Under the pieces are notes generated by a model that saw nothing but the letters and a program-made list of their open reading frames with translations, was not told where the DNA came from and searched no databases. A DNA stretch of 64,000 bases from Myxococcota bacterium (GTDB lineage Bacteria; Myxococcota_A; UBA9160; SZUA-336): the NCBI GenBank assembly GCA_965247115.1, contig CBDFGR010000003.1, positions 608,821 through 672,820 of the forward strand. The letters run 5' to 3'. The position numbers and the translations under genes are program-made. Below are positions 2,980-64,000 of this stretch, one piece after another (the stretch's first letter is position 1; each line of letters begins with the position of its first letter).

Positions 2980-3229
2980 CTCGCGCGAGCGCAAGGCCGA
3001 TTGGACGGGCAACTGCTGCGGGAGAGCATATAATGGTCCCGAACCGCGACCCGGTTCCTATGGGGGATCTTCCTGGGAGCCGGGGGCAGCGACCCAGGCG
3101 TGACCGTACACCCGGAGGTGTGTCCTGACTGCGGACAGCGAAGACCAACCCACAGCGACCAGGCCGCGGCGCTCTCGCCGGCGGCGGCGCCGGCGAGGCT
3201 CGAGCTGCGGAGAGGGATCACCGGAGCAG

Positions 3230-4897
3230 GTGGAGAGCGCTGAGGAATCGAACGGCGAAGCCGCGCCCGTGAAGCAGGCCAGCGCCGAGGGCGAAGCGCC
3301 GGGGCAGCGAGATTCCCGCCCCAGCTTTCGCAGACGAAGACGCAGGCGGCGCAGCGGTCCGAGAGACGAGCGACAGCAGCAGCTGCTGGACCTGCTGCGG
3401 CGGGAGTTCGGGCTGCGTCACTTTCGGCCCGGCCAGGAGGAGACCATCCGCTCGGTGCTCGAGGGTCACGACACGCTCGCGGTCATGCCAACCGGCGGCG
3501 GCAAATCGCTGACCTACCAGCTGCCGAGCCTGCTGCTCCCAGGGCTCACCGTGGTCGTATCCCCGCTGATCGCCTTGATTCGCGACCAGTTCGAGAAGCT
3601 GCGGGCACACGGGATCGAGACGGTTCGCGTGGATAGCTCGCTCACGGGTACGCAGCGGGAGGAGGCGCTGAGCCTGCTCGAGGCGGGCCAGCAGAAGATC
3701 GTGCTGATCACGCCCGAGGGAGCCACGGGGCCCGCGTTCAAGAAGCGCTTGGGGGATGGCCCGATCTCCCTCTTCGTGGTGGACGAGGCACACTGCGTCT
3801 CGGAATGGGGCCACGACTTTCGGCCCTCGTATCTGGCTCTCGGGGCTCTCGCGGAATACCTCGGCAACCCGACGACCCTGGCGCTCACCGCGACCGCTCC
3901 CCCGCTCGTCCGCGAGGAAATCGTCAAGCGCCTGTCCCTCGAAGACCCAACGATCGTGGTGCGCCCCGTCGCACGCCCGAACCTGCGCTTCGAGGTGAAG
4001 CCCTGCGAGTCGGAGGACATGAAGCGGCGCGAGCTCATCCAGCTGATGCGACGCCTGCGCCGGCCTGGAATCGTCTACTGCTCGACGGTGAAGGACGTCG
4101 AGGAGCTCGGCGCTCTCTGCAGGCTCGCGCGCATTCCGGCAGAGATCTATCACGGCCGCCTGACGAAGGCCGAGCGGGACCACGCGCACAAGCGCTTCAT
4201 GTCTTCCGGCAAGCGAATCGTCATGATCGCGACGAGCGCCTTCGGCCTGGGCGTTGACAAGCCGGACATCCGCTACGTCATCCACTATCAGGTTCCGGGC
4301 TCCCTCGAGTCCTATGTCCAGGAGGCGGGGAGAGGGGGGCGGGACGGCCTGCCAGCTCGCTGCATCCTGCTGTGGTATGCGCAGGACATCTCCGTCCAGC
4401 GCCACTTCCTGTCTGAAGGCCCCGCGAGTCGCTCGCAGATCAAGAAAGTGATCGACGGCCTGTCTGCCTGGACCGCGGACGGGAGAGCAGTGGATGCCGC
4501 CGTGCTCGCCATGTCGACGGAGGTCGGCGTCACGCGCACACGCGCGATCCTGGAGGGCTTGCGCGACGCTCGACTCGTGGAGGAGGTGGAGGGCGAGTTC
4601 ACACTCGTCGGAACCCCCGACCTGGCCGAAGCCGTGAAGCTCCTCTCGAAGCACAACGAGGAGCGCAAGACTGCAGACCGCCGCAGGCTCGATGGGATGA
4701 TCAACTACGCCAATGACACCGAGGTGTGCCGGCTGATTCACATTCGGCGCTACTTCGAGGACGGGGAGCCAACGGCCTGTGGACACTGTGATGTCTGCGA
4801 GCCCAAGCTGCGACGCCGTAGACGGCGCAGCCGGCGTGGCGGGGGCAAGAGTGGCAACTCGCACGGCGGCGGCAGCCACAGCAGCGCACGAGAGTAG
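3230..4897 (+). CDS. recQ: ATP-dependent DNA helicase, RecQ family
   Basis: FRPGQEE...[59 protein letters not shown], and the Zn motif [12 protein letters not shown]...CGHCDVC. Arg-rich N- and C-terminal tails. Confidence 0.9.
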
Positions 4898-5696: not shown

Positions 5697-6385
5697 AGCA
5701 TCCGATCCTACAAATCCGCTCCGTCTCGGACGAGCTTTACGAGGTCTCCGACTTGCTGGTCGAGAACGTGTCCCGCCAGCGCTTCTGGCTCTTCGATCTC
5801 GAGGCCACCGGCCTGGACACGACACGCGAGCGCGTCACCCAGATCGCTGGCATCCCGATCGAAAACGGACGCATCCTTGACGACGAGGCGTTCACCATCT
5901 ACGTGGCCCTCGACCCCGACGTCGAGATCCCGAAGGTTGTTCAGGACCTGACCGGGATCACGCGCGAGACCCTTATTGGAGCGCCGGCGTTTCCCGACGC
6001 GTGGGAGCGCCACCTCCGCGCCAGCGGCGGCGAAGGGATCTGGGTAGGACAGAGCGTCTTCGAGTTCGACGTGCCCCTGCTCGAGGCGGAGTTTCGGCGC
6101 CACGGCATGCCCGTCGAGCTGCCCCCCGTGCTGGACTCCGTCATGATCGCCACCGCTCTGCTCGGCGACGCCGACGAGCGCTGGAGCACGAGCAAGCTCC
6201 TGTATCACTTCGGCGTGGACACGACGGGCCTGCGTCGGCACGATGCACTCGATGACGTCAAGATTCTCGGTCGCATCCTCTTGCCCATGTTCGAGCTGAT
6301 CAAGAACGAGCACGACGACAGGCTCGAGGTTCCCGCGGACCGGCCCCTCCAGGTCCGCTGCCATCCACCGGTCACGAACAGCTGA
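5693..6385 (+). CDS. DEDDh 3'-5' exonuclease (DnaQ/epsilon-like)
   Basis: FDLEATGLD (ExoI), SVFEFDVPLL (ExoII) and HDALDDVKILGRI (ExoIII). GTGA start/stop overlap with the upstream gene. Confidence 0.8.
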   Translation: MKHPILQIRSVSDELYEVSDLLVENVSRQRFWLFDLEATGLDTTRERVTQIAGIPIENGRILDDEAFTIYVALDPDVEIPKVVQDLTGITRETLIGAPAFPDAWERHLRASGGEGIWVGQSVFEFDVPLLEAEFRRHGMPVELPPVLDSVMIATALLGDADERWSTSKLLYHFGVDTTGLRRHDALDDVKILGRILLPMFELIKNEHDDRLEVPADRPLQVRCHPPVTNS

Positions 6386-34191: not shown

Positions 34192-34610
34192 CTGGAGGTG
34201 GATGGAGGACTGCTGCCGAGCCGTTCGCGGCGCGGGAGAGGAAAGTCCGGGCTCCGTAGGGCAGGAAGGTGGCTAACGACCACCCGAGGTGACTCGAGGG
34301 AAAGTGCCACAGAAAACACACGGCCCACCCCCGCCCGAGAGGGCGGGGCGGCAAAGGTGAAAACGTGGGGTAAGGGCCCACGCGCGACAGCCGGGTGACC
34401 GGCGGCGAGGTAAACCCCTTCCGGAGCAAGCTCAAATAGGGGCGCAAACGGCCGGCCCGTCCGATGCGTTCGGCCTCCACGCGAGGCGGGGCGCGCGCGC
34501 CCGGGTCAGAGTGCTCGAGCCCGTCGGTAACGGCGGGCCTAGACGAATGGTCCTCCAGGGGAACACGGCAACGTGTCCCCGGACAAAACCCGGCTTACAG
34601 TCCACTCCCG
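34192..34610 (+). ncRNA. rnpB: RNase P RNA (bacterial type A)
   Basis: GAGAGGAAAGTCCGGGCTCCGTAGGGCAGG (core at 34240-34255), GAAAGTGCCACAGAAAA and ACAAAACCCGGCTTACAG. The 5'/3' ends can pair (P1). Ends are approximate to about 10 nt. Confidence 0.88.
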
Positions 34611-34626
34611 TCCTGGTTTGCAGGGC

Positions 34627-43959: not shown

Positions 43960-44019
43960 GAGCACCGGCGTTGCTTCGGGAGCAAGAAGTCGCCGGTTCA
44001 AATCCGGCCGCCCCGACCA
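43960..44019 (+). pseudogene. 3' fragment of tRNA-Pro(CGG): anticodon arm, T arm, acceptor 3' strand and CCA
   Basis: GTTGC-TTCGGGA-GCAAG, AAGTC, GCCGG-TTCAAAT-CCGGC, CGCCCCG-A-CCA. No matching 5' acceptor strand (CGGGGCG) or D arm upstream. Confidence 0.7.
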
Positions 44020-45471: not shown

Positions 45472-46602
45472 CTACCGAAATAGCCCCTCCAGCTTTCGCG
45501 TAGCTTCTTCCTGCATCCCTGGCACAACATGGCTGTACACGTCGAGCGTCATTGCGGCTGAGGCGTGGCCCAGCCGCTCCGAGACAACCTTGACGTTGGC
45601 CCCAAGGGTTAGGAGCTGGGTTGCGGCGGTGTGGCGCAGGTCGTAAAGCCCGCGGGCCCCCTCGATCCCGGCCTCCCAGCAGATCGGCTTGTAGTGCCGC
45701 TCGCGGAGGTTGGCGAGGTCAAGCGGTCGGCCAATCTCGTTCGCGAAGACCAGATCCAAGTCCCGCGCGTACACGCTCCCGAACTTGAGCGCGAGCTCTG
45801 CCTGGCGCGCCCGGTGCCGCCCGAGTGCGCTAAGCACCGGCTCAGGAAGCGGAACGGACCGGAGGCTCCCCGGCGTCTTCACTGGCCCAAGCACGGGCCT
45901 CGAGGCTTCCGTGGTGAGGGCCTGGTGGAAGGTTACGGAGCCGTCCTCGAGGTCCCGCCACCGGACGCCGAGGGCCTCGCCAGGTCGGCAGCCGGTCGCG
46001 AGCATGAAGTCGAAGAGCGTCTCGTGGCGGGAGCCCTGCGCGGCTGCGCGAAACTGGCGGATCTCATCGGCTGAGAGAGCTCGCATTTCCCGGCGCCTCT
46101 GCTTCGGGAGGTTGACTCCCTTCGCGGGGTTCATGGCGAGGAGCCGCCAGCTCACGGCCTGCTCAAGCGCGCTCGAGAGCACGCGATGGACTACTTGGTG
46201 AGTGCGTGGCGAGAGCTCTCGGCCCGCTCGCTCGCCCAGCCGATCGATGAGATCCTGCAGGTCGGCAGGCTCGAGCGAGTCCAGCCGGCGCGACCCGAGG
46301 ACCGGGCGAACGTGCTTCCGCAGGATGAGTTCGTAAGTCTCGCGGGTCCGCGGGCTCACGCTGTGCTTGGAGCGGAGCCATCGATCGAGGTAGTTGGCGA
46401 GGGTTATCCTGTTGGGCTCAACGTAGGTGCCGAGGTCACGGTTCCGAAGGACCGAGTTTAGGTACGTCTGCGCGTCGCGCTTCGTTCCGTGGACGATCTT
46501 CGACGAGTACCGCCGCTTTCCGTTTGCATCGACGCTGACGAACCAGCGCACGAGCCACTTGCGATCGCCGCGTGCTGTGATGTGTCCTGATCTTCGAGCC
46601 AT
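45472..46602 (-). CDS. tyrosine-type site-specific integrase (intact)
   Basis: Arm/SAM-like N-domain. Catalytic residues TGCRPGEAL (R), LRHTAAT (H-x-x-R) and LGHASAAMTLDVYSHV (Y). Confidence 0.9.
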   Translation of the reverse strand: MARRSGHITARGDRKWLVRWFVSVDANGKRRYSSKIVHGTKRDAQTYLNSVLRNRDLGTYVEPNRITLANYLDRWLRSKHSVSPRTRETYELILRKHVRPVLGSRRLDSLEPADLQDLIDRLGERAGRELSPRTHQVVHRVLSSALEQAVSWRLLAMNPAKGVNLPKQRRREMRALSADEIRQFRAAAQGSRHETLFDFMLATGCRPGEALGVRWRDLEDGSVTFHQALTTEASRPVLGPVKTPGSLRSVPLPEPVLSALGRHRARQAELALKFGSVYARDLDLVFANEIGRPLDLANLRERHYKPICWEAGIEGARGLYDLRHTAATQLLTLGANVKVVSERLGHASAAMTLDVYSHVVPGMQEEATRKLEGLFR

Positions 46603-46643: not shown

Positions 46644-47393
46644 CTATTCGTCGACCGAAGTCCTGATCCACGACATCACGACTCCGGTAATGAGTTTGCG
46701 CGCTTCTGAAAGAGACATAGGACTCTCTGGTGGTGATTCCTTGTCGCTGCCATGCCGAGCCGCATCGCCGAGCACAGCCTTGCTGTTTGCCGTTCTCTTG
46801 AAGAGTCCGACCTGCGCGTTCGAAATCCAGCCGCTGTTTACGAGCGGGCTACGACCGCCTATCGCCTCTTCCACGATCTCATAGACTCTGTACAGTGCCA
46901 CGAAACCTAGATCGCCCGTATTCAGTTGCCGTAGTGCATCCAGCATGGGCTCATTCTCACAAACTATGGCCAGGCACTTCTCGATATGATCCGCGGGTCT
47001 GCCGATTGACTCTATGCTGCCGTCCGGCCGACGGATGACAATGGTTGGGGGTACTCCACTCATCCGGATCGACGCTGATTCCGGGCTGACGAATACGTCC
47101 CCGTCGTGCTCGATGCGCTCAATGGAGATACCCGAGCCTCCGAACTGCAGGCGGGCGAGGCTTGAAACAGCCCCAATGAGCTCTTCGGCCAGTGTACGGA
47201 CATCGCGGCCATCGGGGATACCGCCGAAACATGCCGAGTGTAGAATGAACTGACCAGCATCGTTCTTTTCGATGACCGGCTCGTTCGTGAAGGACTCCGC
47301 AAGCATGTGGAGTTGCTCGGGATCACCCTTCAGAACAGCCCGCCATCCAGACTTCTTGTCCCCAACCTCCCACTCTTTCGTCTCTTGCCTCAT
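46644..47393 (-). CDS. hypothetical protein; the C-terminus resembles the DUF4145-type tail of the 60850 gene
   Basis: 249-aa ORF in a visibly lower-GC patch. ...AVLGDAARHG...ARKLITGVVMSWIRT is comparable to ...WLGNDETHY...LKDLIGLVMSWIDT. Confidence 0.6.
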   Translation of the reverse strand: MRQETKEWEVGDKKSGWRAVLKGDPEQLHMLAESFTNEPVIEKNDAGQFILHSACFGGIPDGRDVRTLAEELIGAVSSLARLQFGGSGISIERIEHDGDVFVSPESASIRMSGVPPTIVIRRPDGSIESIGRPADHIEKCLAIVCENEPMLDALRQLNTGDLGFVALYRVYEIVEEAIGGRSPLVNSGWISNAQVGLFKRTANSKAVLGDAARHGSDKESPPESPMSLSEARKLITGVVMSWIRTSVDE

Positions 47394-52089: not shown

Positions 52090-52165
52090 GTGAGCCCTCC
52101 TCGTGCTGCGCCCAGGGCCTGCACCTTCCCGGGTTGCCCGAACCACGCCGCTCGCCGAGGGACTC
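52090..52165 (+). pseudogene. truncated 5' end of an HNH endonuclease paralogue
   Basis: MSPPRAAPRACTFPGCPNHAARRG is nearly the same as the start of the 53430 gene (MSPPRAAPRACTMSGCPNHAARRG). Similarity then ends. Confidence 0.6.
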
Positions 52166-52252: not shown

Positions 52253-52597
52253 ATGCCAGTTCGACTACGAGTAACCATCGTCCGCGACACGGTGCGCCCG
52301 GGTCTCCGACGCTTCCGCGAGGACATCCCACGCAAGCTCAAGATCACGACTCATCGTGCTGGAAGAGCACTCCAGTCCGAAATGCGATCGCGTGCACCGC
52401 GACTCACCGGAGAGCTCGCGCGGCGTATAGAGAGTGACTTCGGCGACACCTTCGCTGCGGTCGGCTCCACGCTACCGCGTGCCCGCTTCCTGGAGTTCGG
52501 GACGAAACGAATGCGCGCCCGGCCTTTCGTGCTGCCCTCGCTAGATCGATTGGCCCCACGCTTCGAGCGGAGCATCTTCCTGGATCTGCGGCGATGA
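52253..52597 (+). CDS. HK97 gp10-family head-tail joining protein
   Basis: RBS AGGAGG then ATG at 52253. ...TGELARRIESD...VGSTLPRARFLEFGT.RM.ARPF is typical of the gp10 family. Confidence 0.55.
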   Translation: MPVRLRVTIVRDTVRPGLRRFREDIPRKLKITTHRAGRALQSEMRSRAPRLTGELARRIESDFGDTFAAVGSTLPRARFLEFGTKRMRARPFVLPSLDRLAPRFERSIFLDLRR

Positions 52598-53433
52598 GTG
52601 AGGAGGAGGTGTATGTGACGAACGACATCGAGATCACCCTGGTGACGATCGCGGATGAGATCAACCGAGAGCACGAGGCAGCCCGAACGGCTGCTGTTAC
52701 TGCAGTCGAACACGCCCGACGAGCAGGTGAGCGTCTTCTCGAGGCCAAGTCCCAGCTCGGACACGGAAAATGGCTGCCGTGGATTCGGGAGCACCTCTCC
52801 TTCTCCGATCGGACCGCGCAGGGATACATGCGCATCGCACGGCGCCTCCCAGAGCTCAACACCGGAGAAGCGCAACGCGTTGCGGATTTGCCGCTCCGGG
52901 AGGCCATGGCGGAGTTGGCGACTCCGAGTACAGCTTCGCTCGATTGGGTCGGCGCTACCGAGTGGAAGGACGTTTGCGAGCTCCAGCACTACTGCGAACG
53001 CCTGATCGACGCTCGCAACGCTATCGACAAGGAAATGGACGAGCTGGAAGCCCGACACCAAGCATGCACGGACATATCCGAGTTGATCCGGATCTACAAA
53101 GCTAACCCGGAGATGCTGGAGTTGGCCACAAAGGCAGCTCGGGTCGACAAAGCGTGGCTTCAGCTAAAGCCGGTGTTTGATTGCCTGCCCTTCCTGATAA
53201 GGAAGTGCGAGGTCAAGATCCTCGAGCTCATCGCTCAGAAGCTTTTCGAACATCCGCCGGCCGACTGGGGCGGCGAGCCTCCCAGGTCGCGCCGCGAGTG
53301 CCTTCGGAGAGTCCGGGATCTGCCCGACTCCATCTTGAACCAGGATGGTGAGATCGACTGGATGCCGCTCGATCTCGCAAGGCGAGAGATCGGAGGCATC
53401 GTCTGGTCCCACATGCAGGGGGCGCCGCTATGA
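52594..53433 (+). CDS. DUF3102-family phage protein
   Basis: ...AGERLLEAKSQLGHGKWLPWIREHLSFSDRTAQGYMRIA is the DUF3102 signature as I recall it. Confidence 0.5.
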   Translation: MSEEEVYVTNDIEITLVTIADEINREHEAARTAAVTAVEHARRAGERLLEAKSQLGHGKWLPWIREHLSFSDRTAQGYMRIARRLPELNTGEAQRVADLPLREAMAELATPSTASLDWVGATEWKDVCELQHYCERLIDARNAIDKEMDELEARHQACTDISELIRIYKANPEMLELATKAARVDKAWLQLKPVFDCLPFLIRKCEVKILELIAQKLFEHPPADWGGEPPRSRRECLRRVRDLPDSILNQDGEIDWMPLDLARREIGGIVWSHMQGAPL

Positions 53434-53789
53434 GCCCGCCTCGTGCTGCCCCTCGCGCCTGCACAATGAGCGGCTGTCCGAACCACGCCGCTCGGCGGGG
53501 GCTCTGCAGAGAGCACGAGCTAGCAGCTAGGCGAGCCCGCGATCGAGAGCGGGGGACATCAGCTCAGCGCGGCTACGACGCGAAGTGGCGCAGACTCCGG
53601 GCGGGCGTCCTCGTAGAGGAGCCGGACTGCAGGTACTGCAAGGAGGCTGGCCGTTCCACGCCAGCAACGGAGGTTGTCCACGCCATCTCTAGACGCAAGG
53701 GTGGGACCGACGAGAGAAGCAACCTGATCCCAGCCTGCAGGCCGTGCGGTTCGCGCAAGACGGCGACGGAGGGCGAACGATGGGGCTAG
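53430..53789 (+). CDS. HNH endonuclease
   Basis: Cys-rich N-terminus. ...VHAISRRKGGTDERSNLIPACRPCGSRKT. A degenerate HNH motif. Confidence 0.7.
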   Translation: MSPPRAAPRACTMSGCPNHAARRGLCREHELAARRARDRERGTSAQRGYDAKWRRLRAGVLVEEPDCRYCKEAGRSTPATEVVHAISRRKGGTDERSNLIPACRPCGSRKTATEGERWG

Positions 53790-54270: not shown

Positions 54271-54753
54271 ATGGCGCGTAGCGGACCGCCCCCGAAGCCG
54301 ACCTACTTGCGTCTACTCGAGGGAAATCCGGGCAGAAAGAAGATCTCGAAGCGCGAGCCGAAGCCGCGCAGGCACCGAAAGGCTCCCGAGCCTCCGACCT
54401 GGCTCGACGTGCACGGGAAGCGCGTGTGGCGCTTGATCGCGAAGAAGCTCGTGCGCTTCGGGCTGCTCACCGAGCTCGACCACGTGCCGCTCGCGGCGGT
54501 CTGCGATTCCTACGCTACCTGGCGCCGCTGCCGACAGGTGGTGCTGGAGGAGGGCTACTCGGTCGACACCAAGGAGACGACGAAGCCCCGGCCCGAGGCC
54601 TTGCTCATGGAGCGAGCGCGTCGGGACTTCGTGCGCTTCGCAGCTGAATTCGGGATGACGCCGGCGGCGCGTACGCGGATCGAGGTCGATGTCTTCGGCT
54701 TGATCGGCGAGAAGTCCGGCAAGGATGACTCGGAGGACTTCTTCGGATCGTGA
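54271..54753 (+). CDS. phage terminase small subunit, P27 family
   Basis: GPPPKPTYLRLLEGNPGRKK...W......L..LT.LD.......C..Y is the P27-family pattern. Confidence 0.8.
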   Translation: MARSGPPPKPTYLRLLEGNPGRKKISKREPKPRRHRKAPEPPTWLDVHGKRVWRLIAKKLVRFGLLTELDHVPLAAVCDSYATWRRCRQVVLEEGYSVDTKETTKPRPEALLMERARRDFVRFAAEFGMTPAARTRIEVDVFGLIGEKSGKDDSEDFFGS

Positions 54754-56324
54754 GGCTCCTCACCGACCACCACCCCGAGGGGTACTACTTCGACGAGGCC
54801 GCAGCGCGGCGTGTGCTGTGGTTCTTCCAGCAGTACCTGGTCCACGTGAAGGGCCGCTGGGCACGGCAGCCGTTCGAGCCCCTGGACTGGCAGGCCGAGA
54901 TCCTCGCGATGATCTTCGGGTGGAAGCGTCCGGACGGGACGCGCCAGTACCGCAAGGCCTACATCGAAATCCCGCGAAAAAATGGCAAGAGTTCTTGGGG
55001 CGCGGGGATCGCCCTGTATCTCCTCTGCGCGGATGACGAGGACGGAGCAGAGGTCTACTCGGCTGCTGGCGACAAGAAGCAGGCGTCGATCGTGTTCGAG
55101 ATGGCGAAGGAGATGGCGCAGCGGTCGCCCGAGCTCTCGAAGCGCATCGCTCGCTTCCGAAACTCGCTCGTGTACCACGCCCGAGCTTCGCGCTACGAGG
55201 TCCTCTCGAGTGATGCCGATCTCCAGCACGGGCTCAACCCCCATGCGGTGATCTTCGACGAGCTCCATGTACAGCCCAACCGAGAGCTCTGGGACGTGAT
55301 GACCACAGCTCAAGGGGCGCGCGTGCAGCCGTTCACGATCGCCTTCACTACGGCAGGCTTCGATCGCAAGTCCATCTGTTTCGAGCAGCACGAGTACGGG
55401 CGCCAGGTCGCGGAGGGCGTGATCGAGGACCCGAGCTACTTTGCGTTTCTCTCGGCGGCAGACGAGGACGACGACTGGACCGATCCTGCCGTGTGGACGC
55501 TGGCGAATCCGAGCCTCGGGGAGACGATCAGCCTCGAGTACCTCGAGGAGGAATGCCGGGAGGCGCAGCGGTCGCCGGCGCGGCAGAACACGTTTCGGAG
55601 GCTTCATTTGAACCAATGGACTCGCTCAGAGACGCGCTACATCGACCTTGAGGCTTGGGATGAGACCGCCGGGAAGGTTGATCTCGGCCTGCTCGAGGGA
55701 GCGACGGCATACGGAGGCCTCGACCTGGCTACGACCACGGACATCGCGGCATTCGTGCTCGTGTGGCCAGCCAAGGACGAGCCCTTCCGCTGCTGGCCCT
55801 GGCTTTGGGTCCCCGAGGAGAAGGTCTGGGACCGCACCAACCGCGACGGCGTGCCGTACCAGGCCTGGGTCCGCGATGGCTGGATTACGGCCACCGAGGG
55901 GAATGTCATCGACTACAGGGTGATCGTGCGGACGATCACCGAACTTGGCGAGCGCTACCGGATTCCGGAGATCGCCTTTGACCGCTGGGGCTCGCAGGCG
56001 ATCCAGAACGAGCTGGGGGATGCTGGGTTCAAGATGATCCAGGCCGGGCAGGGCTTCCCTTCGATGAGCCCGCCTACGAAGGAACTCGAGAAGCTGGTGC
56101 TCTCGAAACGGCTGCACCACGGAGGTCACCCTGTGCTCCGGTGGATGGCAGATAACCTGGTCGTGCGCACCGACCCGGCGGGGAACGTCAAGCCGGACAA
56201 GTCGAAGAGCACCGAGAAGATCGACGGGATGGTCGCGTTGATCATGGCCCTCGATCGGGCGATTCGGAAAGAAGGAGCTCCGAAGCTCTCTGTGTACGCA
56301 ACGAGAGGTCTTCAGTCCCTATAG
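54750..56324 (+). CDS. phage terminase large subunit
   Basis: EIPRKNGKSSWGAG (Walker A-like), VIFDELH (Walker B), and nuclease-domain motifs. ATGA overlap with terS. Confidence 0.88.
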   Translation: MRLLTDHHPEGYYFDEAAARRVLWFFQQYLVHVKGRWARQPFEPLDWQAEILAMIFGWKRPDGTRQYRKAYIEIPRKNGKSSWGAGIALYLLCADDEDGAEVYSAAGDKKQASIVFEMAKEMAQRSPELSKRIARFRNSLVYHARASRYEVLSSDADLQHGLNPHAVIFDELHVQPNRELWDVMTTAQGARVQPFTIAFTTAGFDRKSICFEQHEYGRQVAEGVIEDPSYFAFLSAADEDDDWTDPAVWTLANPSLGETISLEYLEEECREAQRSPARQNTFRRLHLNQWTRSETRYIDLEAWDETAGKVDLGLLEGATAYGGLDLATTTDIAAFVLVWPAKDEPFRCWPWLWVPEEKVWDRTNRDGVPYQAWVRDGWITATEGNVIDYRVIVRTITELGERYRIPEIAFDRWGSQAIQNELGDAGFKMIQAGQGFPSMSPPTKELEKLVLSKRLHHGGHPVLRWMADNLVVRTDPAGNVKPDKSKSTEKIDGMVALIMALDRAIRKEGAPKLSVYATRGLQSL

Positions 56325-56344
56325 GCACCTTGAGGAGGTAAGCC

Positions 56345-57826
56345 ATGGCACGCGATTTCACAGTTCGTGCTCGGATTCAAGCTAAAGACGAGGCGACTCC
56401 AACAGTTCGAAAGGCCGAGCGGTCTTTCGCGGGCCTTCTCTCCACGATCAGTACGAAAACCGTTGCTGCAGTCGCTGCCGGGGTCGCTGCCTTCCGCCTG
56501 TTCACGAGCGCCATCAGCGCAGCCGTCCGTGCTGCGCAGGAGCAGCAGGATGCCGTGAGCGCGCTGAACGCCGCTCTCGATACCCTCGGTCCTAGTGCGG
56601 GGGCTGCGAGTAAGCAACTCCAGGAGCACGCGTCCGCCCTCCAGAGCGTTACCACTACGGGTGACGAGGCGATTCTGCGAATGACGGCCCTGGCGCTGGG
56701 GTTCACGAAGTCCGCGGATGCGGCCGCCAAGCTCGTGAGCGCAGCGCTCGATTTCTCTGCCGGTGCCGGGATCAGCTTCGAAGAAGCGACTCGCCGTCTC
56801 GGGCGCTCTCTCAGTGGCTCGGTGGATGACGTCGCGAAGTTTGTGACCGAGATCAAGGACCTCGACGCCGCGACGCTGGCGGCTGGCGGGGCCATAGAGC
56901 TGATCGGCGAACGCTTCGGCGGCGTCGCAGCGGCCCAAGCCCAGACGTTCTCGGGGAGAATCCAGTCGCTGAAGAACTCCTTCGGCGACTTCCTCGGGAC
57001 CATCGGCGACGGGATCATCAAGAACAAGGAGTTCAATGACGCGCTGGAGTCGATGACGCGTCTGATCTCGGACCCGAACCTCATCAACAGCGTCGTTACG
57101 CTGACCACGCAGTTCGCAACGCTCACGGGGGCGATCGCAAGCGCAATCGTCAAGGTCGGCGAGTGGAGTCGCGCAGCCTTCGAGTTCCAGACCGCGAACG
57201 ATACCTACATCGCGGGTCTCGATGGTACGAGGGAGTCCTTCGACAAGCTCCAGAACGCCACCAGCAACGCCGCGACTGCAACGGATGGTCTCACGGAGGC
57301 ACAGAGGCGAAACCGCGAGGAGAACGAGCGAGGTAGCAAGCAGCGTCAGACCGATCTCGAGGAGGCTCGAAAGCTGGCGGAGCAGCTCGGCGTTACGTTG
57401 GAGCGCGATCTGGTCGAAGCGGAGAAGAAGGAGGCCGAGGCACTAGGGCGGTTGCACCAGCTATACATCAAGGGCGTGATTACCGCTCAGGACCTCGCCA
57501 CCGCGAAAGCGACACAAGCCGAGGCTGCCAGGGAGCTTGCGCCGGCCATCGAGTTCGAGGCGGCGGCGATGGCGAGTGCGAACTCGTCGGCCAGCTCGCT
57601 CCTCAGCACGCAGCGACAGCTCACGACAGAGACCCGTCGGGCTGGCGAGGCGGCTGTGGTGACCTCGAGGCAATTCGACGCGCTCGCAGCTAGCTCTGGC
57701 CGAGCCGCTGCTGTGGAGGCCGCGGTCGCTGGAGGCGGTTTCATCTCCAACGCTGGCTCGAACGGTCGCGGCGGGCGTGTTCGCCTTCCCGGCGGCGGCT
57801 CGCGGCTGATTCAGCCGGGGCTGTAG
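56345..57826 (+). CDS. tape-measure-like protein (short)
   Basis: Ala/Gly-rich, helical, with a TMP-core-like N-terminal half (...TTGDEAILRMTALALGF...AGISFEEATRRLGRSLSG). Directly follows terL. Confidence 0.45.
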   Translation: MARDFTVRARIQAKDEATPTVRKAERSFAGLLSTISTKTVAAVAAGVAAFRLFTSAISAAVRAAQEQQDAVSALNAALDTLGPSAGAASKQLQEHASALQSVTTTGDEAILRMTALALGFTKSADAAAKLVSAALDFSAGAGISFEEATRRLGRSLSGSVDDVAKFVTEIKDLDAATLAAGGAIELIGERFGGVAAAQAQTFSGRIQSLKNSFGDFLGTIGDGIIKNKEFNDALESMTRLISDPNLINSVVTLTTQFATLTGAIASAIVKVGEWSRAAFEFQTANDTYIAGLDGTRESFDKLQNATSNAATATDGLTEAQRRNREENERGSKQRQTDLEEARKLAEQLGVTLERDLVEAEKKEAEALGRLHQLYIKGVITAQDLATAKATQAEAARELAPAIEFEAAAMASANSSASSLLSTQRQLTTETRRAGEAAVVTSRQFDALAASSGRAAAVEAAVAGGGFISNAGSNGRGGRVRLPGGGSRLIQPGL

Positions 57827-57862: not shown

Positions 57863-58807
57863 TTAGGGCTCAAGCTCGCATCCCGAGTCGGGACCGATCC
57901 AAACCTGGTCGATCGTTTGTACTCCGCTGGGTCGTGGCTCGAAGAGGATCTCTCCGGAGCAGAGGGGGATGACATCATCCTCGACAATCGCGCTCCACGA
58001 GGCGCGGCGCTCCGGAACGCTCACAAAGGCCGCGCCCCCGAGCTCCTCGGAGCGTGGTGCCAACTGCCGAACGACTCGGCGGTCGCTTTCCAGGTCAAGG
58101 AGCTCGACGCGGACAGGAATGTCGAGCCCGTTGCGGAAGCAGATTCCGGATGAGCCCATGATGGCCTCCACTTCGCACGCGCTGGGGAGCAGAGCATGAC
58201 ACATGCGTCCCAGCTCGTTCGCACGAGCCAGCAGCAGATCGTTGCACACTGCCAGCTCGCCAGGGGTCACTGTCTGGACAGTCAGTGGCGCCTTGGCGTA
58301 GAGCGCGCAGACCGACGGTCTCTCACCGTTCGCATCAGCATGCGTCGCACCAAAGAAGTGTCGCGGGGCGATCTCGAGGAGAAGAGGAGCCTCTCCGAAC
58401 CCCCCGATCTCGGTGATGAAGCATCTGGGGGCCAGAGAGTTTGGGCCGGGGAGGCGGATCTGTCGAAGGGGGAGGCCGATCTGTCGGAGGTCCTCGGCGT
58501 TGAAGCAGGGACAGCCCTCTCTCACACACGGCATGGGGGGATCGCCCGGCCGCCTCAGAGCGTTGTACCTCTCCAGGATCTCAGCGTCGCTAGGGGGACA
58601 CGGCTCCTCGAGGTCCATCGCGTTGCAGGGGGAGTAGCAGTACGCGGCGCACAGCTCGTAGAGGTTCGGGCTTACGTCAAGCAACTCGCGGCAGTTCCTC
58701 GAGGCGGCGAGCTCCTCGCCGTTGACGCCCCGCGCGTAGGTTGCCGCAGCGGCCGCCAGCGCCGCAGCCAGAACCATGCCGATCGTGATTCCTATTCGTC
58801 TCACCAT
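57863..58807 (-). CDS. secreted cysteine-rich hypothetical protein
   Basis: ATG at 58807 gives a signal peptide, MVRRIGITIGMVLAAALAAAAATYA. About 16 Cys residues. No domain recognised. Confidence 0.5.
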   Translation of the reverse strand: MVRRIGITIGMVLAAALAAAAATYARGVNGEELAASRNCRELLDVSPNLYELCAAYCYSPCNAMDLEEPCPPSDAEILERYNALRRPGDPPMPCVREGCPCFNAEDLRQIGLPLRQIRLPGPNSLAPRCFITEIGGFGEAPLLLEIAPRHFFGATHADANGERPSVCALYAKAPLTVQTVTPGELAVCNDLLLARANELGRMCHALLPSACEVEAIMGSSGICFRNGLDIPVRVELLDLESDRRVVRQLAPRSEELGGAAFVSVPERRASWSAIVEDDVIPLCSGEILFEPRPSGVQTIDQVWIGPDSGCELEP

Positions 58808-59022
58808 TGCAAGGCTCCAGCCGGCTTTGATCCCCGACGCTTGGTGTCTGCCTCGAATCTTCACCGCGGGAGGGAGTGGAGGCAAGAAGAAACGCTCCCT
58901 GGCCGTCGGGATCAGAGACGAGGCCGAAAGCGTAGGTGGGTCGTATACTTGGCGATTGATAGAGCGTAAGCGTCGAAGGCTCTTTGGTTTAGTCTTGCAG
59001 CTTACAGAGTGCGAATGATAAA

Positions 59023-59232
59023 GTGAAAGACGAAACCACACGAGGACGAGGCGGGCCGCGCCCGGGATCGGGCCGCAAACCGCTTTCGGCTACGATGAAG
59101 CGAAGCCACCGGATCATGATCAGCGTGACAGAGCGGGAGTACAGAGCTCTGAAGCGCCGTGCCGGCTCGAACCGTGTTAGCACGTTCGTCTACGAACTCA
59201 TCCGCCGCTCCCTTTCTCGTCGCCGCAAGTGA
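59023..59232 (+). CDS. ribbon-helix-helix small protein
   Basis: ...SHRIMISVTEREYRALKRRAGSNRVSTFVYELIRRSL is an RHH pattern with a basic N-tail. Confidence 0.5.
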   Translation: MKDETTRGRGGPRPGSGRKPLSATMKRSHRIMISVTEREYRALKRRAGSNRVSTFVYELIRRSLSRRRK

Positions 59233-59257
59233 CCGACTCGCTCCTGAGAGGAGCAAC

Positions 59258-60106
59258 ATGATGAAAGAGAGAAGGGAGCCCTTCAGGGATCGCACACTCC
59301 ACATTTTGGATCCGCGGCTCTTCCCAACGAGAGAGTCGGTCATCGACTTCCTGCGAAGCGACCACTTCGTAGCTCTCACACACGCGATCGAACGGGCGGT
59401 AACCTGCGACTTCCGGGTCCCCGAGAAACTGGCTGATAAGATGCGCTTGGCGGCCTCGTACGCGATCGATGATGTCGCGTTGCTCGTTTCGGATGCCGTT
59501 GGATCCAAGCGGCTCGTGTTCGATCGGGATCAGAATTCCTGGGAAGAACACCCACCCCAGAATCGTACCGAGTACCTGTGCAATCTGGCTGCGGCTGTCG
59601 CGGCGGAGAATCTCCTGACGTTAGGCCCCGAGTTCATGGAGTTCTGTCAGAAGCACATCGACAGCATCCAGAGGCGAGAGTTACCGGCCGAGGAAGACGA
59701 GGAGGTCCCGGAGAGCGAGGAGCCTTCGGGAGCTACGGAGTCGCCGCCGCCCGAGAGCGCACAGCAGGAGCCGCGTTTCGAGGTTGCTCGAATTCTGCGT
59801 GAACGCGTGAATGAGCGAATCTTCCTCACCACCGTACTCAGTCACCCGGACAGTGTCTATCCAGACCGCGCTGTCGACGCTGTTGTCTGCGACACGGTCA
59901 AGCTCGTCCAAGCGCTGGCGGAGTACCTCGAGACGGGAACCATGCCTGAGTTCAAATCCCACCTCGCCGACGCTGAGTTCGCCGGTCGCTGCCTGCTGCG
60001 GGTCGAACGGAAAAACGATCCCCTTGGGTCGGTAGAGCTTCTCGCGAAGGAGCTCTCGGGCGAGTGGGATAGCTCCAAGCCTTCGGCCGAGGGACCGAGC
60101 GCATGA
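59258..60106 (+). CDS. hypothetical protein B of the RHH-led operon (acidic central linker)
   Basis: RBS GAGAGGAG then ATGATG at 59258. 282 aa. No domain recognised. Confidence 0.6.
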   Translation: MMKERREPFRDRTLHILDPRLFPTRESVIDFLRSDHFVALTHAIERAVTCDFRVPEKLADKMRLAASYAIDDVALLVSDAVGSKRLVFDRDQNSWEEHPPQNRTEYLCNLAAAVAAENLLTLGPEFMEFCQKHIDSIQRRELPAEEDEEVPESEEPSGATESPPPESAQQEPRFEVARILRERVNERIFLTTVLSHPDSVYPDRAVDAVVCDTVKLVQALAEYLETGTMPEFKSHLADAEFAGRCLLRVERKNDPLGSVELLAKELSGEWDSSKPSAEGPSA

Positions 60107-60651
60107 GCCGAGGTCGGATCCTGCTCGCGCTCACTGGCCTGGTCCTCGCGCTCGCTGGAGGGTTCGCGTGGGGGCTGAGCTTCGACGTTCGGGCAAGACC
60201 AGACTGGCAAGGAGTCGCCGCCGTGGCGACCTTCCTCGCTGTTCTCGTCGCGCTTTGGCCGATCTTCGAACGTCGAGCCGAACGCCATAGCGCGGCAGGA
60301 AGGCTACGCACGAAGCTGATCGTCACCGCTAAGCACGTGGGAGAGCAGCTAAGGCGCTGGGTTTCGGAAGTTGAGGCGGACCCGGGGCATGTCCACGCCT
60401 TGGAACTTGGCGACGTGACGCATCAACTGATCGGAGAGGTGCGAGACCTCGAGCGGCAGTTCGAACTCCTGACCAACGAGGAGTGGGAGCCCGTGATGTA
60501 CATGTGGAACTGCTTTCGGGACGTGCACGGAAAGAACTTGTTCAACGAAGACCTCAAGAAGGCGAAGACGACCGTCGCCTCGACGGAGGAGGTGGTCAAG
60601 TTGCTGCAAGATCGAGCCCTGCTGCACGAGGCAAAAGATGAGCCCGTCTGA
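60103..60651 (+). CDS. hypothetical membrane protein C (two N-terminal TM helices plus a helical domain)
   Basis: ATGA overlap with B. ILLALTGLVLALAGGFAWGL and VAAVATFLAVLVALWPIF. Confidence 0.6.
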   Translation: MSRGRILLALTGLVLALAGGFAWGLSFDVRARPDWQGVAAVATFLAVLVALWPIFERRAERHSAAGRLRTKLIVTAKHVGEQLRRWVSEVEADPGHVHALELGDVTHQLIGEVRDLERQFELLTNEEWEPVMYMWNCFRDVHGKNLFNEDLKKAKTTVASTEEVVKLLQDRALLHEAKDEPV

Positions 60652-60853
60652 GTCTTGGCGGAGTTCTCTCGAAGCGATGTCTTTCGACGATATCGACTCG
60701 CTGCTCATCGATGAGGAACGCTCTCTGTGGTTCGCCTCGATCGCGGGGCGGCTGCCGGATGACCAGACGCCAGTGGGCCAGGTCCTGAGCGACGGCGACC
60801 TGCGAGAGCTCCTGGCGGGAGTGCTCGCGGAGACAAGGAGGGCGAGCGGATGA
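60638..60853 (+). CDS. small acidic hypothetical protein D
   Basis: 71 aa. 14-nt overlap with C and a 4-nt overlap with E. Confidence 0.45.
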   Translation: MSPSESWRSSLEAMSFDDIDSLLIDEERSLWFASIAGRLPDDQTPVGQVLSDGDLRELLAGVLAETRRASG

Positions 60854-61557
60854 GCGACGACCGGCGACAGGAGGTTAGCGTTGGCAACAGTCGAGTTCTC
60901 TATGATCGCAATCCGGACATCTGCCCCCTGTGCCACATCTCGGTGGAACCCATTCTGCAGCTTGGCTCCCTGAGGCGGGTTGGACGGGAGGCAGAACTTG
61001 AAGTTGTCTTCAAGTGCCCACATGCACAGTGCCAGAGCCTCTTCATTGCGAGCTATCGGCTAGCCCAAGACCGGATAAGCGGACGTTTTCTCGACTACCA
61101 GGTCTTGATAGCGACTGGGCCTGTATACGCGAGGAGCCCGGAGGAACTGCAGATTCCCCTGACAGTCCGAGAAGTCTCCAAGAGCTTTGCGACAATCTAT
61201 GCTCAGGCGGTCGCCGCTGAAGGGTTCCGCCTCGAGCAGGTCGCGGGTGCCGGGTATCGGAAGTCGCTTGAGTTCCTCGTGAAAGACTACTGCATTTCTT
61301 GTGAGCCAGATGCGAAGGAAGCAATCATCAAGAAGTGGCTGGGCGCGTGCATCAACGATCACATCGCGGATGAGAGTATCAAGCAGTGCGCGAGGCGAGC
61401 CACCTGGCTTGGCAATGATGAGACGCACTACGAGCGGAAGTGGGCCGACAAGGATATTGAGGACCTCAAGGACTTGATCGGCCTCGTCATGAGCTGGATC
61501 GACACAAAGCTTAGGACTGCAAAGTACCTTGAAGAGATGCCAGGGGGAGAGGGGTGA
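60850..61557 (+). CDS. zinc-ribbon plus DUF4145-domain protein E
   Basis: CPLCH...CPHAQC. The C-terminal part ...YRKSLEFLVKDY...WLGACINDHI...ATWLGNDETHYERKW fits the DUF4145 pattern. Confidence 0.65.
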   Translation: MSDDRRQEVSVGNSRVLYDRNPDICPLCHISVEPILQLGSLRRVGREAELEVVFKCPHAQCQSLFIASYRLAQDRISGRFLDYQVLIATGPVYARSPEELQIPLTVREVSKSFATIYAQAVAAEGFRLEQVAGAGYRKSLEFLVKDYCISCEPDAKEAIIKKWLGACINDHIADESIKQCARRATWLGNDETHYERKWADKDIEDLKDLIGLVMSWIDTKLRTAKYLEEMPGGEG

Positions 61558-61643
61558 TGGCCAGACGATCCGGACAGATCACCGCACGCGGCGATCGGAA
61601 GTGGCTCGAGGAGGAACGCTCCAACGGAGGAACAGCCCAATGA
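61557..61643 (+). pseudogene. 5' remnant of an integrase gene related to 45472-46602
   Basis: MARRSGQITARGDRKWL... versus MARRSGHITARGDRKWL.... Roughly 50 nt of DNA similarity, then a divergent short tail to TGA. Confidence 0.65.
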
Positions 61644-61891
61644 CAGAAGAAGTTCATGTTCGGTTTCAGACAGAGGGAGCAGCGGAGCCCGAGTCGATCC
61701 TGGCGGTGCTCCGAGCGCACGACATTGAAGGGGATGCACCGCCTCGGTTCAGCGAGCGGGGATGTCTCGTTCTTATCCCGAAGGGCGCTTGGGATATGGT
61801 CAATAAGACGGCGCTCAGCAACGACCTGCAAGCGGCAGGGTTTCCGGGTGACTTCTCAGTCGAAGCTACCTCAGAGCATGGCTACCGATGA
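61640..61891 (+). CDS. hypothetical small protein
   Basis: Internal ATG at 61640. 83 aa. ATGA overlaps on both sides. Confidence 0.4.
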   Translation: MTEEVHVRFQTEGAAEPESILAVLRAHDIEGDAPPRFSERGCLVLIPKGAWDMVNKTALSNDLQAAGFPGDFSVEATSEHGYR

Positions 61892-62034
61892 AGCGCAAGC
61901 CCAAGCACCGGAACCTGTCCGCCCGCGCCGGCGGCGTAATCTACTACGAACGCGTCTGGAAGGGACGCCGCTTCTGCTTCTCGACGAAGACGACCGATTG
62001 GGGTAGGCCGCGTCGGTGTGCGAGCCGAGCATGA
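61888..62034 (+). pseudogene. N-terminal (arm-binding) fragment of a second integrase type
   Basis: MKRKPKHRNLSARAGGVIYYERVWKGRRFCFSTKTTDWG... is a typical integrase N-terminus. It terminates after 48 codons. Confidence 0.5.
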
Positions 62035-62141
62035 GCGAAGAGATGACCGAGGCGGTCGCACTCCTCGAGGACCTGGAGAACTTCGCGTCGTCAGGTCTCT
62101 AGGGCCTTAAACGAGTTGGCGCCCACCGAGAGAACGAGCGC

Positions 62142-62828
62142 GTGAGCGACGAGGTAGAAGAGAGCAGCAAACCGCGGCACTGGGTTCGGAACACGGTGGT
62201 TGTTTCGATCGTCTGGGTCGTAGGTGCGATCGGCTATGCGGTCTGGCCGTGTCTCGGCTCCGCTACCTGCGAGAGGCTCCGGCTTGGCGAGCTCGGGGAC
62301 TTCGTCGCTGGTGTCGCTGCCCCTGTAGCGTTCCTGTGGTTCGTCATCGCTGTGTTTATGCAGCGAGACGAGCTCGAGATGCAACGCAGGCAACTCAGCG
62401 CTCTCCTCGTAGAGCAGCGTCGGTCCACTGCGCACCAAGCTTGGCAGAAAGAGACCGAGGCGCTCCGCGATCAGCCCAACCTTCTCCTCAACATCAATGG
62501 TCCGAGTCCTGAGGGGGACTGGTTCTGCCACGTGATGAACGTTGGCGCGACCGTATCCCACCTTCGGGTCACGGACTGCAGCCCTGACCTGCTCGTGGCG
62601 AAGCCGACTCCGGAGGTTCCGCGACATCCCTGGTCCGATCTACGAATCCCGACCGCGGGCGGAGGTGGCGCTCATCTCTTCTCACTTCGGTGGTCGCGCC
62701 GACCCGAGCTGCTCGAATTCACGATCGTCTACAGCGACGCAAGCCGGAATCCGGGGCAACAGACCTATCGCTACCTGAAAGCCACACACGCGTGGAGCAG
62801 GCTTGACGAGAAGGAATCGCAGGCATGA
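62142..62828 (+). CDS. hypothetical membrane protein (two N-terminal TM helices plus a soluble domain)
   Basis: VVVSIVWVVGAIGYAVW and FVAGVAAPVAFLWFVIAVFM. Preferred over the antisense 178-aa ORF because of the TM pattern. Confidence 0.5.
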   Translation: MSDEVEESSKPRHWVRNTVVVSIVWVVGAIGYAVWPCLGSATCERLRLGELGDFVAGVAAPVAFLWFVIAVFMQRDELEMQRRQLSALLVEQRRSTAHQAWQKETEALRDQPNLLLNINGPSPEGDWFCHVMNVGATVSHLRVTDCSPDLLVAKPTPEVPRHPWSDLRIPTAGGGGAHLFSLRWSRRPELLEFTIVYSDASRNPGQQTYRYLKATHAWSRLDEKESQA

Positions 62829-62853: not shown

Positions 62854-62907
62854 ATGAAGCGCAAGCCCAAGGGCGCGAAGTACCACTCTCTGCTCACCGC
62901 AAGATGA
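62854..62907 (+). pseudogene. second copy of the MKRKPK integrase leader (17 codons)
   Basis: ATGAAGCGCAAGCCCAAG is identical to 61888-61905. Confidence 0.4.
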
Positions 62908-62922
62908 CGTAAGGAGTAAATC

Positions 62923-64000
62923 ATGGTCCATCGTGGCGATCTTCGCGCATTACCCGGCGCCGCCGCCCGTGCTATGTGGCTACACGCGGCCCGGCGGGTG
63001 GGGCGAATCGAGCGCTGGCAGCGCGACGGTCGGACGGAGGTCTGTCTCTCGTTCCGACTCCGGGGCCGCCGCGTCCGCATCTATTCTGACGTCGACCGCT
63101 GGGGCCAGCGCAAGCGGCTCAGCGAAGACACGGCGCACGTGCTCCTCGATGACATCCGCGCCGAGATCCGGCACCGTCGCAGTGTCGACGAGGGTCTCGC
63201 GCTCTTCCTCAAGACGCACGCACCAGAGAACTTGTTCAGCACTCGCTGGGAGGCGTTCCTCGCCAAGAAACGGCGCGACGCGCGGCAAGGCCAGATCACG
63301 ACCCGCCATCTCGGCGAGCTCGAGGGATCGAACGCCGCGGCTACCTCGGGACCCTGCTCGAGCGCTCGATCTACGATCTCGACTACAGTGCGCTCGAGGA
63401 CTGGCTTGGCTGGCTCCACGATACGAGGCCCGAGCTCTCAGCGAAGACACGCAAATACGCGCTCAGCGCCGTCATGTCATTCCTGTGCTGGCTCCATCGG
63501 CGGCGCGATATCTCGGAGCTGCCCGAGGCGCCGACCATCGTCGTCGGCGAGCACGCGCCCGTGCTGCTTTCGGCTGACGACCGCGAGAGAATCCTCGCCG
63601 CGATCCCCGAGCCGGCTCGCGGTATCTTCCTGGCGCTCGTGCACATGGGACTCAGACCGAGCGAAGCCCGCGTCATGAACTGGTCGGCCTACCGGGACGG
63701 CTACCTCACAGTGGCCCATGCGGCCAAAGATCAGCGGCCCGAGGGGAGGATCGGCGACACGAAGACGCGGAGCGTGCGACGTCTACCCGTGCATCCCGAG
63801 GTGGCCGAGTGGATCGAGAAGCACGTGCGGCGCGAGGATCTGCTCTCCGACCCGCCGCTCTTCCGAAACCCCGAGGGCGCGACTGCATCAAGGCGTTGGA
63901 GCCCGTCCGCGATGGGACGCTCGTGGACGCGCGCCCAGATCACGGCTCTCGGACGGATGGTGGCCCCGCTCTACGAAGGCACCCGGCACAGTTTCGCGAC
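62923..64000 (+). pseudogene. tyrosine integrase, apparently frameshifted near 63324-63327; 3' end outside window
   Basis: RBS AAGGAG then ATG at 62923. Integrase-like N-part up to ...HLGELEG. It continues in another frame (IERRGYLGTLLE...GLRPSEARVM...GDTKTRSVRRLPVHPE...EGTRHSFA) that stays open to the window edge. Confidence 0.6.

Follow-up and report, generated by a model that had tools for sequence, protein, structure and literature searches.

RAZR (PD-T7-4; accession RRL46918.1) of Escherichia coli is a "Zn finger-HEPN" protein encoded by a single 660-nt gene, which was found in a pangenome screen and "often overlaps an integrase gene" (Vassallo et al. 2022, PMC9519451). Its zinc-finger domain, the most variable part of the protein and the one that sets specificity, binds large phage ring proteins, namely the portal and a recombinase-like protein. 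RAZR assembles around these rings as a 24-mer, its HEPN domain (R146, H154) then cleaves RNA nonspecifically, and this one gene acts by abortive infection (Zhang et al. 2026, PMC13017515). The protein needs no antitoxin, being inactive until a phage ring protein binds, and it departs from the Rx4-6H motif yet is an active RNase (PMC13017515). In this study, a cluster of five co-directional, tightly packed open reading frames (ORFs; genes A to E, positions 59023-61557, plus strand) was analyzed in a 64-kb stretch of DNA from a Myxococcota bacterium (contig CBDFGR010000003.1, assembly GCA_965247115.1). This whole stretch is called the window, and coordinates refer to it unless another locus is named. 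The last gene of the cluster, E, encodes a protein of RAZR-like architecture.

DUF4145 is a HEPN family for which a fusion to a zinc ribbon has been listed, in a survey that also covers HEPN toxins paired with nucleotidyltransferase (MNT) antitoxins and HEPN proteins of abortive infection such as AbiD/F, AbiJ, AbiU2 and AbiV (Anantharaman et al. 2013, PMC3710099). Like these proteins, E is predicted to have a HEPN-fold helical domain with a conserved N...H helix, fused to a variable N-terminal sensor-like domain, and it stands in a conflict-system context. Unlike them, it has neither an MNT partner nor an Abi_2/AbiJ-type N-domain, and its zinc-ribbon fusion corresponds to the DUF4145 subtype listed in that survey. 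No nucleotidyltransferase domain was found in A-D or in the downstream ORFs. A closer relationship exists with the phrog_1305/DUF4145 proteins of temperate phages and plasmids, for example those of Streptococcus prophages and gp32 of Aeribacillus phage AP45. E is a full-length member of this family, with 31-51% identity and the same invariant residues, and shares its accessory-gene positions (in the lysogeny module, beside integrases or beside transposases). It differs in being the sole member seen with B, C and D upstream; "DNA binding protein", as PHROGs calls the family, is no more than an annotation.

The locus can also be compared with the integrase-proximal defence hotspots of P2/P4 type (Vassallo et al. 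2022, PMC9519451). In both cases, variable accessory genes including a defence-type gene are packed beside an integrase, and the integrative element described here also carries primase-helicase genes. The difference is that the cargo here appears to lie inside an operon running from a ribbon-helix-helix (RHH) gene to the integrase, each cargo block being followed by a short 5' fossil of an integrase gene.

Taken together, the evidence suggests, at a probability of about 0.6, that the cluster forms the leading portion of an operon running from an RHH gene to a tyrosine integrase, with unrelated accessory genes intercalated, in an integrative element that has since decayed, and that E is an independent single-gene RAZR-like module. 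Of the five genes, E alone resembles a known anti-phage protein, and together they do not make up a single defence system; genes of a mobile element can be tightly coupled in translation without belonging to one system. In addition, the E family, with more than 740 relatives in phages, plasmids and chromosomes, is unstudied and is here placed next to the newly solved RAZR mechanism.

Gene E encodes a predicted zinc-ribbon and HEPN-fold protein

The N-terminal part of E contains the cysteines C25-x2-C28 ... C56-x4-C61, all four of which are invariant in an alignment of 61 relatives, as are R137, E141, K145, D146, W186-L-G-N-D190 and H193. When A-E were searched against Pfam, PADLOC, NCBIfam and PHROGs, the only significant match was that of E to phrog_1305 (E = 4.5e-36), in which residues 20-224 align with positions 14-212 of the 226 in the profile. 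PF13643 (DUF4145), which an initial annotation made from the sequence alone had expected on this protein, was indeed found at residues 132-208, yet its score of 16.1 bits (E = 0.012) falls short of the 23.1-bit cut-off, and plasmid relatives of E are named "DUF4145 domain-containing protein" by NCBI. The family comprises 743 relatives at E <= 0.001, the best being 51% identical.

An AlphaFold model of E built on the family alignment (pLDDT 92.3) has a six-stranded N-domain (residues 7-90) and a helical C-domain (residues 97-229). Foldseek comparison of this model with the PDB returned HEPN proteins as the best matches (1wol, probability 0.99; 4nqf, 0.91; 8yuf), including a HEPN toxin and a Csx1 fusion; against a viral library it returned one family-like match without a name. 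Across the family, mean identity to E is 30% in residues 7-90 vs 55% in residues 104-229. E is therefore predicted to be a zinc-ribbon protein with a DUF4145/HEPN fold and a hypervariable N-domain, and the zinc ribbon and DUF4145-type module originally read from its sequence agree with the invariant cysteines and the modelled fold, with the Pfam match remaining sub-threshold.

In the 13 loci that were fetched, from metagenomic contigs, two phages and three plasmids, the E-family gene stands alone. It lies between the repressor and the integrase in Streptococcus prophages, beside IS110, IS481 and IS66 transposases, beside a ToxN/AbiQ toxin on a plasmid, and between coaE and dnaX in one metagenomic contig. 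In Aeribacillus phage AP45 (L001, 3970-5651) it overlaps an upstream NERD nuclease gene, and on a Pseudomonas luteola plasmid (L016, 3962-6517) a CoiA-family gene follows 49 nt downstream. On a Bacillus toyonensis plasmid (L017, 3926-5947), a 419-aa hypothetical gene likewise lies 49 nt downstream. These three paired loci may represent two-gene variants of the family.

A further sequence reminiscent of E occurs within the window. The 249-aa protein of ORF 46644-47393 (minus strand), which adjoins an intact integrase gene (Table 1), ends in "...AVLGDAARH...ITGVVMSWIRTSV", resembling "WLGNDETH...IGLVMSWIDTKL" of E. This is a motif-level match over 50 residues (BLASTP E = 0.015; hhalign E = 0.05), and the 249-aa protein has no family hit. 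To judge from these motifs, the intact integrase may also be preceded by a HEPN-like gene, one with a different N-domain.

Comparison of E with RAZR

E and RAZR are both single proteins of ~220-235 aa with an N-terminal Cys4 zinc ribbon and a C-terminal divergent HEPN domain of DUF4145 type. In both, the N-domain is the most variable part and a histidine is conserved in the HEPN helix. Both are carried on mobile elements with the end of the gene overlapping an integrase gene, the stop of E overlapping the ATG of an integrase fossil. The layouts differ, however, with H193 of 235 residues in E vs H154 of 219 in RAZR, and the integrase adjoining E is only a 17-codon fossil. The likeness is one of architecture, size, pattern of variability and integrase overlap, set against the published description of RAZR. 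A blastn search with a Vibrio plasmid relative of E toward E. coli RAZR gave no match. Membership of E in PD-T7-4 at the sequence level is not supported by the searches with PADLOC models, the family profile and Foldseek described below, and E is better described as a RAZR-like variant which, by analogy, would be a trigger-activated RNase.

Following this analogy, the hypervariable zinc-ribbon domain of E would recognize a phage protein made in infection. Recognition would switch on the conserved HEPN domain, with its invariant N189, D190 and H193, and this domain would cut RNA, halt translation and abort the infection.

Instead of an RNase effector, E might conceivably be a HEPN protein without catalytic activity, or a regulator that binds nucleic acid, given the PHROGs label of the family and the replacement of the canonical arginine of the Rx4-6H motif (G188-N-D-E-T-H193); the adjacent nuclease-type genes in some loci (NERD in phage AP45, CoiA on the Pseudomonas plasmid) would then be possible effectors. 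This is rather doubtful, because N189, D190, H193, R137, E141, K145 and D146 are strictly invariant, as is typical of an active site and not of a scaffold, because RAZR, which also departs from the motif, is an active RNase (PMC13017515), and because most family members have no nuclease neighbour.

Coupling and co-occurrence of genes B to E

The coordinates, overlaps and product descriptions of the five ORFs, read from the sequence and the ORF list, are as initially annotated (Table 1). Direct reading of the sequence revealed an ATGA overlap between B and C (60103-60106), a 14-nt overlap between C and D (60638-60651) and a second ATGA overlap between D and E (60850-60853). In a frame plot of G+C content at the third codon position (GC3), the annotated frame ranks highest throughout A, B, D and E and, within C, over the C-terminal two thirds; the corresponding value for the second position (GC2) is low in B, C and E (0.40-0.42). 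GA-rich Shine-Dalgarno sites lie 4-8 nt upstream of B, C, D and E (GAGAGGAG, GAGGGA, ACGAGG and AAGGAGG, in gene order). Judging from the frame plot and these sites, A-E look coding. Since the minus-strand ORF 57863-59041 separates A from the terminase genes on its other side, A-E constitute a co-directional unit of their own. An inverted-repeat search around the cluster found nothing above chance.

The initial annotation had interpreted B-C-D-E as one abortive-infection module, combining a sensor with a membrane effector. Co-occurrence elsewhere served as the test of such a four-gene system, and no second copy of the block was found among the loci surveyed. In searches with A-E and with G, a gene downstream of E, all 13 loci with E relatives lacked A, B, C, D and G, and all five loci with D relatives lacked E. 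At most two of these four genes occur in any one locus, and E is never accompanied by another of the four, B, C or D.

Extended to all five genes, that interpretation would have A regulating a four-gene system in which B and/or E sense the infection, C is the membrane effector and D is an adaptor or inhibitor. It draws on the co-directional genes with their 4-nt and 14-nt overlaps and good ribosome-binding sites, on the presence of a membrane protein and a HEPN-type protein in a cargo position, and on a very weak resemblance of C to SLATT_1 (E = 0.045). Nevertheless, the block is conserved nowhere: C has no relative, B has only half-length ones, D occurs without E and E without D, and the E family is stand-alone. 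Moreover, no PADLOC model matches any of the five proteins, and overlaps are also found between RHH and integrase genes in cargo-free relatives. Such a system is consequently very unlikely. The proposal of abortive infection retains its value for the last gene, whose architecture is that of an abortive-infection RNase of the RAZR/PD-T7-4 type, and not for B-C-D-E as a unit, with E standing alone in 13 loci, D found without E, C an orphan and B a mosaic.

A smaller unit may also be considered, in which D would be the antitoxin, small and acidic, encoded upstream of E and coupled to it, and E the HEPN RNase toxin, in the manner of a toxin-antitoxin pair. The size and charge of D (71 aa, pI 4.1), its ATGA overlap with E and the common neutralization of HEPN toxins by an upstream partner (PMC3710099) would be in keeping with this. 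However, 0 of the 13 loci with E relatives have a D relative, relatives of D precede integrase or membrane-protein genes and not HEPN genes, and RAZR itself works without an antitoxin (PMC13017515). Such a pairing is very unlikely.

A proposed operon running from an RHH gene to a tyrosine integrase

Gene A encodes a basic protein (pI 12) with an N-terminal GRKP arm. It had been labelled an RHH regulator; its profile match is only sub-threshold (NikA-like, E = 0.018; 15.6 bits against a cut-off of 27), as are those of its homologue in locus L014 (RHH_7 at 0.042, RHH_5 at 0.11). The label is consistent with the 30-35% identity between A and the RHH genes of loci L003, L011 and L014 (tblastn of A against L014, E = 2e-6), and with an R-x-hydrophobic strand and T-x2-E-x3-L-x3-A helices shared by the four homologues. 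This alignment comprises the four proteins known prior to the metagenome search with the L014 integrase, which yielded four further loci, L021 and L024 among them.

In L021 and L024, the RHH gene (5780-6004 and 5828-6004, respectively) overlaps the integrase start (6001-) by ATGA, with no gene between. In these cargo-free loci, the A-type RHH gene is thus the first gene and directly overlaps the start of the integrase. The order in L014 is RHH gene, transmembrane (TM) zinc-ribbon protein, TPR lipoprotein, D-like gene, D and tyrosine integrase, where the two D-family genes stand in tandem just upstream of the integrase (2654-2923, 2993-3256) and the integrase ATG overlaps the stop of D (ATGA). 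In L011, the RHH gene is followed by genes for a 77-aa acidic protein, the C-module of B (as a separate 122-aa gene), D and a TM protein. In L003 it is followed by the N-module of B with another C-terminus. L010 carries D (83% identical) and then a homologue of G.

From this comparison, the conserved frame appears to be an RHH-to-tyrosine-integrase operon, with B, C, D, E and G as inserts of differing distribution, and A would be its first gene. Stop/start overlaps occur even without cargo (L021, L024), and tight coupling is therefore no argument for one system. The coupling of the last four genes reported initially is real, but it is better explained by cargo entering the RHH-integrase operon, because the RHH and integrase genes overlap by ATGA in the cargo-free relatives; it is accordingly attributed to the operon and not to a system. 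In the proposed operon, A would bind DNA and control the operon, while B, C, D and G would be lineage-restricted cargo, possibly for exclusion, defence or counter-defence, sharing a transcript with E without forming an obligate complex with it.

The recurrence of A and D with this integrase type also leads to a different proposal, that A-D serve maintenance of the element (for example, by controlling integration and excision), with D as integrase cofactor or directionality factor, A as operon repressor and E as the sole cargo. In L014, D occupies the place where an excisionase classically lies, overlapping the start of the integrase, and in L021 and L024 A overlaps that start. On the other hand, the strong acidity of D sets it apart from DNA-binding excisionases, L021 and L024 both lack D, an AlpA/excisionase-like gene stands separately at 4548-4892 of L021, and neither B nor C is conserved with the integrase at all. 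A maintenance role for the whole of A-D is hence considered unlikely.

Several observations weigh against an operon with an independent, RAZR-like E. The operon model draws on few, mostly short metagenomic contigs (two cargo-free loci and one locus with both cargo and integrase), and a consensus scan for promoters and terminators around the cluster found nothing above chance that would mark A-E as one transcript. In RAZR, R146 and H154 are 8 residues apart, whereas in the E family the residue at H-8 is A, T or V, and R183 stands at H-10 in 52 of 61 members. No PADLOC model matches E or 44 family members at E <= 1 (PD-T7-4 being counted if it is in that release), a search of PDB sequences with the E-family profile recovered no chain of RAZR at E <= 10, and no RAZR entry is among the top 50 Foldseek matches in the PDB. 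Furthermore, B, C and D may cooperate with one another, or with E, in this lineage, a point on which comparison does not decide since C is unique.

If the operon model is general, the RHH-to-integrase interval of this integrase family, with the 5' fossils left behind, could be mined for new defence and counter-defence genes. Useful leads are the RAZR-like family, the role of this interval as a site for cargo, and the 5' fossils of integrase genes. A bolder, combined proposal can be put forward only tentatively and is itself unlikely as a whole: that the interval is a dedicated cargo-capture site into which genes are swapped together with an integrase 5' handle, with B, C, D and G as novel genes for anti-phage, exclusion or counter-defence functions that may work together with E in this lineage, and that phrog_1305 is a second RAZR-type clade, distinct in sequence, whose HEPN site (GNDETH) is non-canonical and whose triggers differ.

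Integrase fossils and gene G downstream of E

The interval between E and the end of the window is a patchwork of integrase remnants and further cargo (Table 1). The ATG that overlaps the stop of E begins a fossil of the first integrase type: the N-terminus of the intact integrase, which lies on the opposite side of the mobile region, matches positions 61557-61607, with 16 of 17 N-terminal residues identical, and homology at the DNA level extends over ~55 nt, followed by divergence and a stop. The second fossil, which follows the 83-aa ORF, shares 78% identity with the N-terminal end of the L014 integrase in a stretch of 40 residues. Its 18-nt integrase start, ATGAAGCGCAAGCCCAAG, recurs at 62854 and is thus present on both sides of G; the start at 62854 is identical to that of the L014 integrase. 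Positions 62025-62081 retain a 19-residue trace of the N-terminus of a 199-aa protein of L003.

G shares 57% identity with its counterpart in L010, which is the gene next after the D homologue there, and the N-terminus of G matches phrog_9267 (E = 3.5e-8); a profile scan of viral contigs with G gave no match. The cluster of integrase remnants described initially thus consists of a pseudogene and 5' fossils of two integrase types, and the accompanying description of accessory cargo beside integrase genes in a mobile region holds as well. The patchwork of 5' fossils in this interval, from E to the disrupted integrase, suggests that recombination took place repeatedly at the starts of integrase genes. 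Cargo blocks would be exchanged by recombination within these starts, each block being followed by a piece of an integrase 5' end.

Genes B, C and D as probable lineage-restricted cargo

B is an acidic (pI 4.8), all-helical protein with an N-module (~1-144) and a C-module (~175-282) separated by an acidic linker. Only two relatives, both partial, were found in 5.8 billion proteins. One, P0122, matches the N half of B at 63% identity. The other, P0123, matches the C half at 56% identity but has an unrelated N-module; it is a paralogue of B, encoded elsewhere on the same 2.64-Mb contig, beyond the window. The separate 122-aa C-module gene of L011 is 49% identical. B has no match in Pfam, PADLOC, PHROGs or NCBIfam, a profile scan of genome contigs with the B alignment gave no match, and the AlphaFold model, built from a 3-sequence alignment (pLDDT 49), is unusable for fold searches. 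The distribution of the two halves points to B as a mosaic, a fusion of modules that are found separately.

C shows two 19-residue hydrophobic peaks, starting at residues 4-9 and 33-39, which predict two N-terminal TM helices, and a predicted helical cytoplasmic tail. It is an orphan, with no relative besides itself in 5.8 billion proteins and no significant similarity to G. Its best profile matches are sub-threshold (DUF7269 at 0.0037; SLATT_1 at 0.045).

Three other assignments were considered and rejected. C as a 2-TM effector of the SLATT type was set aside, as its SLATT_1 score of 13.7 bits is far under the cut-off of 41; a lysis cassette with C as holin, as no endolysin domain is present; and a mobilization module with A as a NikA-like protein, as no relaxase domain is present.

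D is a helical, acidic protein with a family of ~12 small relatives, as judged from a full HMMER scan of 1.84 billion representatives in which long propeller-repeat proteins matching a short stretch were set aside. Profile scans of genome contigs, metagenomes and viral contigs with the D alignment gave no match. Of the three genes, D is the best conserved and tends to lie just before an integrase or a membrane protein. B, C and D are regarded as lineage-restricted cargo; that D acts together with the integrase is an alternative to be taken seriously.

The mobile region around the cluster

The G+C content falls from ~44 kb onward relative to the rest of the window. Besides the features listed in Table 1, the mobile region encodes a Prim-Pol primase, a DUF3987 helicase-like gene and a DUF3102 gene (52594-53433). 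The initial annotation had placed the cluster between packaging and tape-measure genes on one side and integrase remnants on the other. TerL and the remnants stand, whereas the tape-measure label at 56345-57826 corresponds to a weak match only (TMP_2, 25.8 bits against a cut-off of 30.2).

Table 1 Features of the mobile region, in window coordinates.
Feature	Position	Strand	Description
Tyrosine integrase, intact	45472-46602	-	Phage_integrase E = 8e-21; phrog_1 E = 5e-77
TerL (large terminase)	54750-56324		Assignment confirmed
A	59023-59232	+	GTG start, 69 aa
B	59258-60106	+	282 aa; public gene call takes the second ATG, 281 aa
C	60103-60651	+	182 aa
D	60638-60853	+	71 aa
E	60850-61557	+	235 aa
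Fossil integrase 5' end, type of 45472-46602	61557-61643	+	ATG overlaps E stop (TGATG); 28-codon ORF
83-aa ORF	61640-61891	+	ATGA overlaps at both ends (first fossil, second fossil); no family hit
Fossil integrase 5' end, second type	61888-62034	+	48 codons; type coupled to RHH and D genes in relatives
G	62142-62828	+	228 aa, two N-terminal TM helices; cargo between D and integrase
Second-type integrase, disrupted	62854-64000	+	Early stop, frame change near 63300; runs off window end (three-frame translation)

In the region 54750-57826, TerL is followed by a 493-aa alanine-rich protein, the one with the sub-threshold tape-measure match, and no portal or capsid gene was found among the window ORFs scanned. 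The element could be a remnant or satellite-like instead of a full prophage. The minus-strand ORF 57863-59041 is convergent on this terminase/tape-measure-like unit and encodes a 392-aa protein with a predicted signal peptide followed by a cysteine-rich region, for which no match was found in Pfam, PHROGs or NCBIfam. It is overlapped by a plus-strand ORF (58196-58969) of lower GC3.

At 43989-44019, an orphan 3' end resembling that of a tRNA or tmRNA was found, consisting of a T-arm and acceptor strand (GTCGCCGGTTCAAATCCGGCCGCCCCGACCA). It occurs in a single copy, the window contains no complete tRNA, and the sequence is probably an attachment-site remnant at the left border of the mobile region. 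A 71-nt direct repeat (52091-52161 and 53431-53501; 79% identity), each copy of which begins at a TGA, is associated with the DUF3102 gene, one copy lying at its stop and the other ~430 nt upstream of its start. In the chromosomal part of higher G+C content, an RNase P RNA of bacterial class A is encoded at 34194-34613 (231.8 bits).

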